35,688 nucleotides of DNA from a virus. Its lineage: Duplodnaviria > Heunggongvirae > Uroviricota > Caudoviricetes. Made by a program: the position numbers and the translations under genes. Where the stretch lies: IMG/VR virus record IMGVR_UViG_2740892230_000015; one strand, given 5' to 3'. The notes beneath the pieces are model-generated. The model was not told the DNA's origin, ran no database searches, and worked only from the letters and a program-made list of their open reading frames with translations. Of the stretch, positions 18,861-19,209 are shown piece after piece (the first letter of the stretch is position 1; each line of letters begins with the position of its first letter).

Positions 18861-18930
18861 ACGGAAAGAGCATTCCTGGTGGACCTGTAGATTGGGATAT
18901 GAACCCGTTACAGGAGAATGCTCTTACCTG
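18861..18930 (-). ncRNA. candidate structured element: hairpin carrying a conserved loop motif (copy B)
   Basis: Minus strand: arms AGAGCATTCTCCTG / CAGGAATGCTCT enclose GTAACGGGTTCATATCCCAATCTAC. Strand and RNA-versus-DNA function unresolved. Confidence 0.3.
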
Positions 18931-19120
18931 TTACGTGCTCCGTTTCGTGGAGCTAACGGCGGGTGATCGGGCCGCACCAGACTGGACTTATTTCAGCGTT
19001 ATGCTCATGCCAGAGAATCAAACTGTGATGGTCGGTGCTGAACTCCGACACAGGGTTGTAGCAAGCCCCGCAAAGCGCGCACTACTGTAGTTGCGGCACA
19101 TCAGCCTGTGCATTCACCAC

Positions 19121-19209
19121 AATGTTGAGAACACTGGTTGTCACGCTGCAACGCAACATTTATTCGTAGATTGGGATATGACCCCGTTACGCCAGTGTTC
19201 TCAACGTTG
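19121..19209 (-). ncRNA. candidate structured element: hairpin carrying a conserved loop motif (copy A)
   Basis: About 17-bp inverted repeat (19121-19140 / 19191-19209, one mismatch) enclosing GTAACGGGGTCATATCCCAATCTAC; stem sequence differs from copy B. Confidence 0.3.

Follow-up and report, generated by a model that had tools for sequence, protein, structure and literature searches.

Two hairpins, A and B, in the leader of the ban operon of phage P1 belong to a previously undescribed family of long-stemmed RNA structures that is present in P1 and in many of its relatives. About 1 kb of the leader in this much-studied phage, annotated as two doubtful open reading frames (ORFs), seems to specify a series of conserved structured RNAs, and the same elements are found in many enterobacterial prophages and phage-plasmids and are absent from Rfam. 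We suggest, with a probability somewhat short of one half (roughly 0.45), that they make up a modular structured RNA of the minus strand in which the long helices would serve as RNase III-type punctuation, and an apical module resembling part of the initiator tRNA would bind a factor.

Four long hairpins in the leader of the ban operon

The window (i.e. the whole 35,688-nt stretch of DNA that was analysed) is 100% identical to phage P1. Its plus strand contains a 25-nt repeat, GTAGATTGGGATATGA(A/C)CCCGTTAC, at 18887-18911 and 19166-19190, with 24 of 25 bases in agreement. There is no third copy in the 35.7-kb window when up to three mismatches are allowed, and the expectation by chance is 0.00 (100 shuffles). 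A preliminary description of this DNA had noted the same repeat, with the end of the first copy placed 2 nt short at 18909. Each copy is enclosed by its own inverted repeat, as was also noted there, but the arm lengths given (about 12 bp with a bulge, and about 17 bp) require revision to 13 bp plus six basal pairs in A and 23 positions in B. The two repeat-bearing hairpins are members of a group of four related long hairpins (A-D), all on the minus strand. The features of the region are as follows.

18741-18860, minus strand: STnc100 / dicB-leader-like core, directly after element A, forming the tciA 5′ UTR
18857-18935, minus strand: element A, long hairpin with 6 basal bp, a bulged A, a 13-bp stem, an initiator-tRNA-like apical mini-hairpin and an 8-nt 3′ bulge
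18884-18914, minus strand: mini-hairpin of A, CCUGUA / AC / GGG / UUCAUAU / CCC / AAUC / UACAGG, holding the repeat copy 18887-18911
18899-19090, plus strand: annotated ORF upl, antisense to the hairpins
19091-19468, plus strand: annotated ORF plp, antisense to the hairpins and overlapping tRNA-Thr on the opposite strand
19115-19214, minus strand: element B, three-way junction with a 23-position stem and two apical hairpins
19139-19158, minus strand: second apical hairpin of B, UGUUGCG UUGCAG CGUGACA
19165-19191, minus strand: mini-hairpin of B, CGUA / AC / GGG / GUCAUAU / CCC / AAUC / UACG, holding the repeat copy 19166-19190
19352-19437, minus strand: element C, third related hairpin, 19-21 bp stem with a bulged A
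19439-19514, minus strand: tRNA-Thr, same orientation as the hairpins
19517-19592, minus strand: tRNA-Asn, same orientation as the hairpins
19789-19883, minus strand: element D, fourth related hairpin, upstream of tRNA-Asn, stem GGCACAACAGGTAAGGGCGCTGGT / GTCAGCGTCCTTTCCTGTTGCG
20058-20084, minus strand: intrinsic terminator between Pban and the tRNA/hairpin array

In element A the inner 6-bp helix is formed by 18884-18889 and 18909-18914 and the outer 13-bp stem by 18863-18875 and 18916-18928; six further basal pairs past the bulged A give its limits of 18857-18935. The minus strand has a calculated folding energy of -35.0 kcal/mol (z = -6.5 compared to shuffled sequences), and the plus strand -28.9 kcal/mol. 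Element B has an inner 4-bp helix (19165-19168 with 19188-19191) and an outer stem (19115-19137 with 19192-19214) that is 91% complementary over its 23 positions, with 22 pairs and one mismatch when G:U pairs are counted. Its minus strand folds at -49.2 kcal/mol (z = -6.5 compared to shuffles), and the plus strand at -43.0 kcal/mol. The closing pair of the mini-hairpin is U:A in A and C:G in B, a compensatory change. The second apical hairpin of B includes two G:U pairs that can only form on the minus strand, and its relatives exhibit compensatory variants. Element B can be aligned with three-way-junction elements of prophages. Element C begins 1-2 nt past the CCA end of tRNA-Thr.

The annotated order of the operon is Pban, a dicF-like region, hairpin D, tRNA-Asn, tRNA-Thr, hairpins C, B and A, tciABC, tRNA-Ile and ban, and the hairpins lie on the sense strand of the leader of this C1-controlled operon. 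Past the terminator at 20058-20084 no sigma-70 promoter was predicted. Transcription of the array from Pban therefore hinges on read-through of this terminator. A preprint on the P1 transcriptome makes no mention of upl, of plp or of RNA from the intergenic region of the hairpins. CRISPRi knock-down directed against annotated genes of the region had no phenotype in lytic growth.

The stems form a covarying family

The stems of the family have a conserved base, CACAAC(A)G[G/U]U[A/G]AG ... CU[U/C]A[C/A]C GUUGUG, with an upper part that is variable yet complementary and an apical module that is interchangeable; most members carry apical modules other than the mini-hairpin shared by A and B. The stems are 19-29 bp in length with at most two mismatches. 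Those of A and B had been described as different; their sequences have indeed diverged, but they are diverged homologues with the conserved basal sequence in common.

Members were collected using custom hairpin scans and pattern scans in place of a covariance model of the arms only, in which apical insertions of 25-80 nt were too costly and true copies scored 10-15 bits, i.e. within the noise. RNAalifold was informative for the mini-hairpin portion only, as MAFFT placed the 3′ arms of the P1-type sequences out of register when complete elements were aligned. The family is present in D6, P7, phage-plasmids of Klebsiella and E. coli, and lambdoid prophages, the relatives being located in the tRNA arrays of P1-like and SSU5-like phage-plasmids and in lambdoid prophage early-left leaders. 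More than 120 viral contigs gave matches in each of two scans limited in output, and the three-way junction is conserved across many enterobacterial genera. The hairpins are found between the tRNAs, the sRNA-like cores and the first gene. Eight of the hairpins in tRNA arrays begin no more than about 6 nt from the 3′ CCA end of a tRNA, and a difference of 196 bp between P1 and its relatives corresponds to exactly one hairpin-plus-core unit.

Comparison of 25 distinct members reveals extensive covariation in the stem. Changes on both sides are found in 16 of 20 stem pairs, and none of 500 shuffles matched the observed values. Overall 96% of cells are paired, compared to 79% in the shuffles and 36-56% in slid controls, although part of this 96% stems from the use of a hairpin finder to gather the members. 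At one position of the stem the most frequent pair is U:G, which can form on the minus strand alone, and the minus strands of A, B and C fold better than the corresponding plus strands by 6-7 kcal/mol. Taken together these asymmetries indicate that the structure is formed in minus-strand RNA. The preliminary description had proposed a selected structure, either an RNA element or a protein-binding site presented by a hairpin. Selection is upheld by complementarity that survives many two-sided changes, and the strand bias of G:U pairing and folding energy makes an RNA element the most likely form. It had further proposed a covariance analysis in relatives and an Rfam scan; the former gave the two-sided changes above, while in the latter no family covers the hairpins.

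The ORFs upl and plp

The preliminary description took the stretch to be non-coding; this overlooks the two plus-strand ORFs, upl and plp, that the GenBank annotation of P1 places across it. Nevertheless these are probably spurious and not genes, judging from their sequences in relatives. Substitutions at the three codon positions number 8/21/18 in upl and 66/69/88 in plp, so that there is no excess at the third position, and relatives have stop codons and frame-breaking indels of 1, 7 and 10 nt. Most of the listed relatives have no gene under the match and a few have a 'hypothetical protein', in a PLSDB gene table that is incomplete. Short ORFs beginning from GUG or AUG just 3′ of the stems were also considered and set aside, as neither a Shine-Dalgarno (SD) sequence nor a conserved frame could be seen by eye.

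The apical mini-hairpin and the anticodon arm of initiator tRNA

The motif shared by A and B is a small hairpin in which a helix leads through an AC/AAUC internal loop to three GGG:CCC pairs and the 7-nt loop NUCAUAW. Judged from the sequence, it resembles the anticodon arm of initiator tRNA and not a T-arm. The homologous three-way junction of prophages carries CGGGCUCAUAACCC, which matches positions 28-41 of E. coli metY exactly, i.e. 14 nt identical to the anticodon arm of initiator tRNA-fMet, and the mini-hairpin of A is homologous to this module. Among the tRNAs in the fetched loci, the initiator is the only one to fit GGG-NUCAUNN-CCC. The three G:C pairs that close the 7-nt loop (29-41, 30-40 and 31-39) are invariant in 18 of 18 aligned elements, and are likewise present in both P1 copies and in metY. 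A set of 57 motif-bearing loops was fetched via the stems, with the motif playing no part in the retrieval. UCAU (U33 plus the CAU anticodon) is found in 56 of these, as it is in both P1 copies; the lone exception is UCCU. The stem-retrieved elements also include a few with a shortened GG:CC stem or with CCC changed to UCC. While UCAU is near-invariant, loop positions 32, 37 and 38 vary. Position 37 is U, not a purine, in 21 of the 57, and the P1 copies differ from tRNA-fMet in having U or G at position 32 and U at position 38. The resemblance is thus confined to three base pairs of the stem together with the loop; the purine at 37, C32, A38 and the complete 5-bp anticodon stem are not reproduced, and the AC/AAUC internal loop stands in for pairs 27-43 and 28-42. 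The basal helix of the mini-hairpin covaries.

The motif capped by unrelated complementary helices was also found in non-enteric genomes, its breadth outside the Enterobacterales amounting to a handful of loci. A scan of genome contigs with 15 specified bases returned mostly chance matches, 97 of the 120 listed having no enclosing stem of 15 bp or more.

The loop had previously been likened to a T-arm, with GGG(T/G)TCATATCCC. As transcribed, the loops of A and B read UUCAUAU and GUCAUAU, respectively, above a 3-bp stem, where a T-arm has U54-U55-C56-R57-A58 on a 5-bp stem. Loop position 5 is U where the T-loop needs A58, and position 1 varies between U, G, A and C where it needs U54. That assignment is therefore withdrawn.

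We note that a true T-arm lies close by, in a hairpin missing from the preliminary description. The apex of element C is a canonical T-arm at 19373-19387, GAGGGTTCGAATCCCT, identical to the T-arms of real tRNAs. ARAGORN and RF00005 found only tRNA-Met(CAU), tRNA-Thr and tRNA-Asn, and nothing at hairpins A-D. A pairing partner for the loop sequence CUCAU, the AUGAG downstream of it in one prophage lineage, was rejected on finding by eye that other lineages do not conserve it.

STnc100-like cores beside the hairpins

Rfam RF02076 (STnc100) matches 18741-18860 with 33.4 bits (E = 2.7e-5), below its gathering score of 47, and leaves the hairpins uncovered. A core homologous to this sequence precedes dicB in the Qin prophage, and the version in phiES15 ends in a terminator. 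A related copy appears to follow element B at 19025-19120 on the minus strand, with GUGGUG ... GUCGG-AGUUCAGCA-CCGAC ... CAUCAC; this was read directly from the sequence and compared with relatives.

A proposed function of the hairpins

In the explanation that we favour, A and B would be copies of a modular RNA that forms part of the ban operon's long, C1-controlled and untranslated leader. The near-perfect helices of about 19-23 bp would act as punctuation, being targets of host RNase III or, failing that, barriers to nucleases. They would partition the tRNAs, the STnc100/dicB-leader-like modules and the tciA-ban mRNA, leaving stable hairpin ends. RNase III needs an RNA duplex of at least about 20 bp, and the stems of 19-29 bp lie in this range; a transcript containing them requires read-through of the terminator. 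The conserved basal sequence and the apical motif exceed what RNase III needs, however, and this suggests a more specific role. The mini-hairpin would be one apical module, a copy of the features that define the initiator tRNA anticodon arm, and is probably bound by a factor that reads this arm. If the stems are processing sites they would account for the release of tRNAs, sRNA-like modules and mRNAs from one early transcript, and if the mini-hairpin binds a component of translation initiation or one that targets tRNA, phage and host would meet here through an interface of a new kind.

The resemblance to initiator tRNA could instead be the main function, the hairpin being a decoy or mimic of the anticodon arm that captures a factor directed at tRNA-fMet, with the long stem no more than a scaffold for display. 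Candidate factors are a VapC/MvpT-type toxin that cuts the anticodon loop of tRNA-fMet, MetRS, or the 30S P site with IF3; VapC cleaves initiator tRNA. The 14-nt identity to metY in the homologous prophage elements would be explained, as would retention of the three G:C pairs, U33 and CAU while positions 32 and 38 drift, the perfect T-arm in neighbouring hairpin C and the location in phage tRNA arrays. Moreover the occurrence of the motif on unrelated helices in distant taxa suggests a universal partner. Yet that partner is only a candidate, just three stem base pairs are mimicked, many variants have U at position 37, tRNA-fMet has nothing equivalent to the invariant AC/AAUC internal loop, and most members of the family bear other apical modules, so we regard a decoy as unlikely to be the main function. 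We are slightly more doubtful of a broader proposal, that these are a widespread undescribed phage RNA module in which a mimic of the initiator anticodon arm (or a T-arm, in the sister hairpin) is mounted on a long double-stranded stem, serving either as a decoy for toxins or enzymes directed at tRNA-fMet or, by docking in the P site, to recruit or block the 30S subunit on early transcripts. Docking in the P site, if true, would be a bacterial counterpart of viral translation elements that mimic tRNA.

Other explanations look weaker still. Anti-termination is suggested by a boxA-like UGCUCUU(U/A) in the 3′ arm with a small hairpin after it as in nut; alternatively, dense structure might simply mask Rho loading sites over the untranslated leader of about 1.5 kb. 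About 10 of 25 members have GCUCUU(A/U)(C/U) in the 3′ arm, the stem is followed by a small hairpin that covaries (GCGCA GGCUGA UGCGC compared to GCACA GGCUGA UGUGC), the location is an early-operon leader with terminators near, and boxA protects other untranslated arrays. But a nut site would have a conserved single-stranded boxA of the GCUCUUUA type, whereas here the boxA-like bases are paired and their columns covary, being GUUCUCAA, CCGCUCAA or GUCUAUCC in other members; moreover, we know of no N-like protein in P1. This seems improbable to us. Just as improbable is that the hairpins are functionless, as decayed tRNA genes or recombination scars whose mosaic is kept solely by recurrent recombination between similar arms. 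The apical parts do look like pieces of tRNA, the same region has tRNA-Ser in D6 and P7 and tRNA-Tyr in another relative, and units are gained and lost through recombination at the arms; against this stand the two-sided changes in 16 of the 20 pairs, the three-way junction kept over many enterobacterial genera with a motif that extends beyond them, and long conserved stems of a kind that tRNA lacks. Least probable is that the inverted repeats act as DNA (as a cruciform, a protein-binding palindrome or a mobile inverted-repeat element) or that the region codes for Upl and Plp. A palindromic CAACGTTG in the basal arms of some members and the annotation of the two ORFs point that way, but there are many G:U pairs (A:C on the opposite strand), invariably on the tRNA-sense strand, the orientation is always that of the operon, and there is no target-site duplication around the indel. 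The boundaries of the indel lie inside homologous 3′ arms and the interiors differ among copies, arguing against a MITE or other insertion element. Coding is opposed by the codon-position counts, indels and stop codons in relatives, by the lack of a listed gene there in most relatives of the incomplete PLSDB table and by the overlap of plp with tRNA-Thr.

Comparison with known systems

Bacterial Y RNAs (YrlA) similarly have a long stem formed from their 5′ and 3′ ends and an apical tRNA-like module. However, cmscan with YrlA (RF02553) gave no match on the hairpins, and a weak score of 25.6 bits, compared to a gathering score of 69, falls on the real tRNAs. To our knowledge Ro/Rsr is not encoded by P1 and is absent from E. 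coli K-12. The put RNA of HK022 is a V-shaped pair of stem-loops of about 70 nt that binds RNA polymerase. Like the P1 elements it is a cis-acting structured RNA right after an early phage promoter, but it lacks a three-way junction on a stem of 20-28 bp. An identity with put was dropped on the basis of this difference, the comparison being one of architecture and not of sequence.

The STnc100 (RF02076) and PasD prophage sRNAs also bear comparison. An STnc100-related core lies right after hairpin A and related cores follow the other hairpins, and both are found in early or late leaders of prophages with TerB-like neighbours. The hairpins are nevertheless outside the Rfam model, and the P1 core has no terminator and acts as the leader of tciA. 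The E. coli thrS operator and viral tRNA-like structures offer a further parallel, in that the stem-loop features of a single tRNA anticodon arm, here that of the initiator, recur in a leader hairpin outside any translated sequence. In contrast to thrS the mimicry covers 3 bp plus the loop on a very long stem, there are several copies, they are found in phages and not in a synthetase gene, and the partner is putative.

Compared to the hairpins processed by RNase III (the T7 early sites, the lambda N leader, the rrn stems and dicF in Qin), the basal stem and apical modules are conserved far past the requirement of the enzyme, and cleavage here is a prediction. In common with those, related hairpins of about two turns of helix lie between functional RNAs in an early operon and, as in the lambda N leader, the stem of the prophage form ends at an SD-like GGAG.

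Four related hairpins in the ban operon leader

Positions 18700-19600 of the window are 100% identical to the reverse strand of phage P1 (NC_005856, 69340-70240). On the minus strand the annotation gives the order Pban (a C1-controlled promoter), a 'dicF-like region', tRNA-Asn, tRNA-Thr, the hairpin region, tciA, tciB, tciC, tRNA-Ile(CAU) and ban. Two ORFs of the P1 record, upl and plp, are small and antisense to all the surrounding features, and the reported repeat falls in the stretch that they occupy. The features are:

17932-18007, minus: tRNA-Met(CAU) according to ARAGORN, tRNA-Ile2 (ileX-like, lysidine-dependent) in the P1 record
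18857-18935, minus: element A
18899-19090, plus: upl, ORF of the P1 record
19091-19468, plus: plp, ORF of the P1 record
19115-19214, minus: element B
19352-19437, minus: element C, 1-2 nt past the CCA end of tRNA-Thr
19514-19439, minus: tRNA-Thr
19592-19517, minus: tRNA-Asn
19789-19883, minus: element D, upstream of tRNA-Asn, between it and the dicF-like region
20084-20058, minus: intrinsic terminator, between Pban and the tRNA/hairpin array

The preliminary description reported a motif repeated in two hairpins. The repeat is a 25-mer at 18887-18911 and 19166-19190 with 24 of 25 bases alike; it occurs nowhere else in the window (chance expectation 0.00), and each copy does lie within an inverted repeat. 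Hairpins A and B fold with -35.0 and -49.2 kcal/mol on the minus strand (z-scores of about -6.5), compared with -28.9 and -43.0 kcal/mol on the plus strand. The 25-mer had been taken for a loop, but it folds into a small hairpin of its own, reading GUA / AC / GGG / 7-nt loop / CCC / AAUC / UAC on the minus strand. The helix continues with C:G in one copy where the second has CCU:AGG, a compensatory difference. Nor are the stems unrelated, as had been thought. Repeat and hairpin scans gave two more elements, C and D, and the stems of all four are homologous, with the common base CACAAC(A)G[G/U]U[A/G]AG ... CU[U/C]A[C/A]C GUUGUG; a tail such as GUGAAUGC or AUGAAGUGC follows every hairpin. The remaining long hairpins of the whole-window scan have no conserved arms and mostly depend on G:U pairs. 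That scan also returned a long inverted-repeat pair at 27169-27337 on both strands (GTGCGCTGGAGGG ... CCCTCCAGTGCACA, 18-20 of 20 pairs), which has no relation to the hairpin family.

At the apex of element C, one nucleotide from the long stem, is a canonical T-arm (GAGGGUUCGAAUCCCU, 19373-19387) with exactly the sequence of T-arms in real tRNAs. The element as a whole is reminiscent of an acceptor/T-arm minihelix whose 'acceptor' stem is 21 bp long. The apex of element D includes a 7-nt loop, GUGAUUA, on a 5-bp stem. With A, B and C, three of the four hairpins of P1 display a tRNA-like piece; in other members of the family the apical modules are unrelated.

A covarying RNA structure of the minus strand

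The arms of 25 distinct family members were aligned, using natural arm sequences (each confirmed to be present in the genomic loci) with the apical parts replaced by a GAAA linker. Of the alignment cells 96.0% were paired, compared with 79.4% after shuffling and 36-56% in slid controls, although part of the high pairing is built in, since a hairpin finder supplied the members. Both sides have changed in 16 of the 20 stem pairs, and the covariation score was 0.54 compared with 0.21; the observed values were reached by none of 500 shuffles on any measure. The flanks and basal sequence are shared, so the members are homologous.

A palindrome acting at the DNA level (i.e. a cruciform) or a product of the plus strand was considered. 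G:U pairs are frequent throughout the stems, and in one column U:G is the commonest pair; on the opposite strand these would read as A:C mismatches. Together with the better folding energies of the minus strand this argues against both alternatives, and points to the hairpins being RNA read from the minus strand. The original inference of a selected RNA structure was therefore right, the stems being conserved and covarying among relatives in a strand-specific manner. The hairpins constitute a conserved, covarying, strand-specific family of structured RNA with exchangeable apical modules.

Similarity of an apical module to the initiator tRNA

The motif occurs at more than 120 loci in viral contigs, mostly prophages. 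There it forms hairpin 1 of a three-way junction with a 24-29 bp stem, the architecture of P1 element B (a long stem bearing two apical hairpins), with which the prophage elements align along stem and tail. The commonest prophage form is GAC GGG CUCAUAA CCC AAUCC, and its 14-mer CGGGCUCAUAACCC matches positions 28-41 of metY, the E. coli initiator tRNA gene, at every base. The identity spans three G:C pairs and the entire anticodon loop; the three G:C pairs are the distinguishing mark of initiator tRNA, which is the only tRNA in the compared loci to fit the pattern. A T-arm had been proposed for hairpins A and B; this does not hold, since loop position 5 is U where a T-loop requires A58, and loop position 1 is variable.

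Retrieval by the stem sequences, with the motif excluded from the search, recovered 77 distinct inner sequences, 57 of which have GGG, a 7-nt loop and CCC near the 5' end. Among the other 20, most are unrelated matches and a few are variants whose stem is shorter or contains G:U. The loops of the 57 are CUCAUAA (33), CUCAUUC (17), CUCAUUA (4), UUCAUAA (2) and CUCCUAA (1). U33-C34-A35-U36 and the GGG:CCC stem are essentially fixed, and variation is confined to positions 32, 37 and 38; in P1 position 32 is U or G, and 37-38 are AU. Covariation is seen in the helix under the AC/AAUC internal loop: both sides have changed in 9 of the 16 pairs of the predicted fold, most of them in this helix. By a rough post hoc estimate that allows for the apical hairpins examined, the probability that a random hairpin of 3-bp stem and 7-nt loop would match the anticodon arm of some tRNA is around 1e-3. 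At the level of sequence, one apical module copies the anticodon arm of initiator tRNA.

The mimicry is incomplete. Around one third of variants have U at position 37, just three stem pairs are copied, and nothing in the tRNA corresponds to the invariant AC/AAUC loop. Action as a decoy or mimic of tRNA-fMet as the main function was considered, as was an origin as neutral tRNA relics.

The tRNA at 17932-18007 has an anticodon stem (GCGAC/AUCGC region) that does not resemble the motif's GGG:CCC. In the second apical hairpin of the prophage junctions (loci L033, L104, L057, L041 and others) the loop is often GAUUCCUAA, GACUCCUAA or CUUCCUAA, and the apical modules of hairpins on Klebsiella plasmids contain similar GACUCC strings. 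These loops may be a second conserved motif, faintly anti-SD-like.

Distribution of the family

The same hairpins are found in phages D6 and P7 and other P1-like plasmids, in SSU5-like phage-plasmids of Klebsiella, Shigella and E. coli, in siphoviruses, and in lambdoid prophages, where they lie in the early-left leader between the repressor gene and yfdP or kil. The query has matches in 899 plasmid records, and their pattern is mosaic. The full three-way junction is present in Escherichia, Citrobacter, Enterobacter, Kosakonia, Atlantibacter, Phytobacter, Mixta and Yersinia. Within tRNA arrays eight hairpins begin no more than about 6 nt from a tRNA 3' CCA end.

P1 differs from relatives such as JL22 by 196 bp, exactly one unit of hairpin plus following core, and many P1-like plasmids have the extra unit (609-891 of locus L005, compared with window ~19340-19365). 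The unit is bounded by conserved 3' arms, indicating gain or loss by recombination between arms rather than transposition; P1 appears to have lost the unit when the 3' arms of two hairpins recombined.

A genome-wide scan was swamped by chance matches because the pattern had just 15 specified bases. At a few non-enteric loci an AC-GGG-NUCAUNN-CCC-AAUC cap stands on helices of 9-12 bp that are perfectly complementary but unrelated, and these loci matched no Rfam family. One is in a Planctomycetaceae MAG, beside what we take to be a phage portal gene. In two Saccharibacteria MAGs the 5' arms differ and yet pair with the same 3' arm, through G:U pairs and one compensatory change. Another cap (L316, ~5684-5900 in reverse-complement coordinates) is directly upstream of a dnaB homologue. 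The P1 array is likewise upstream of a DnaB homologue, ban, which may be coincidence.

Adjoining structured units

The tail after each hairpin starts a second structured unit, comprising GUGRUG, a small hairpin, CCGGNG-AGCA-CCGG and then CAYCAC. The unit after element A (18741-18860, minus) is the tciA leader (5' UTR); it scores 33.4 bits against Rfam STnc100, below the gathering score of 47. It is homologous to the dicB leader in Qin and the tciA leader of D6, and the homologous unit of phiES15 ends in an intrinsic terminator, like a discrete sRNA. According to a recent preprint, STnc100 is related to the prophage sRNA PasD and has TerB-like neighbours. The P1 transcriptome preprint reports that in an hfq mutant tciA is over-induced and tciB/C under-induced.

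The region downstream of Pban (20058-20240, minus) is similar to the sequence upstream of dicF in Qin. The dicF-like region ends in its own terminator, which suggests a short Pban-driven sRNA. This terminator (20084-20058) is strong, and everything downstream of it needs read-through; no promoter is predicted beyond it. We found no transcript mapping for the hairpin region, the P1 transcriptome preprint included. CRISPRi against the genes annotated there gave no lytic-growth phenotype.

upl and plp

We considered that the region might be coding. Substitutions among relatives by codon position are 8/21/18 in upl and 66/69/88 in plp, without third-position excess. Across the ORFs relatives have indels of 1, 7 and 10 nt and in-frame stop codons, the upl region is wholly replaced in D6 and P7, and plp overlaps tRNA-Thr on the opposite strand. 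Most P1-like plasmids listed in PLSDB have no gene listed under the match and a few have a 'hypothetical protein', but the gene table is incomplete and this is weak evidence. Lacking a coding signature and broken in relatives, upl and plp (18899-19468, plus) are probably spurious, i.e. mis-annotations overlying the RNA array.

Possible role of the hairpins

The observation as a whole is real and significant: the hairpins belong to an undescribed yet widespread family of phage RNA. We propose that the helices, which reach or exceed about 20 bp, would be RNase III substrates or nuclease barriers that punctuate a long untranslated early transcript, and might so release the tRNAs, the sRNA-like cores and the tciA-ban mRNA. 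A boxA or anti-Rho action was also considered. Both the basal sequence, which is conserved, and the cap resembling an anticodon arm suggest that there may be an additional, specific partner.

The proposal of RNase III cleavage or a nuclease barrier is based on helix length, on the location of the hairpins between functional RNAs and right after tRNA 3' ends, and on analogy with processing at the T7 early sites, the lambda N-leader hairpin, the rrn stems and dicF. In the prophage form the hairpin runs from the U-tract of an upstream terminator, where its 5' arm starts, to an SD-like GGAG at the end of its 3' arm, an arrangement that resembles the lambda N-leader.
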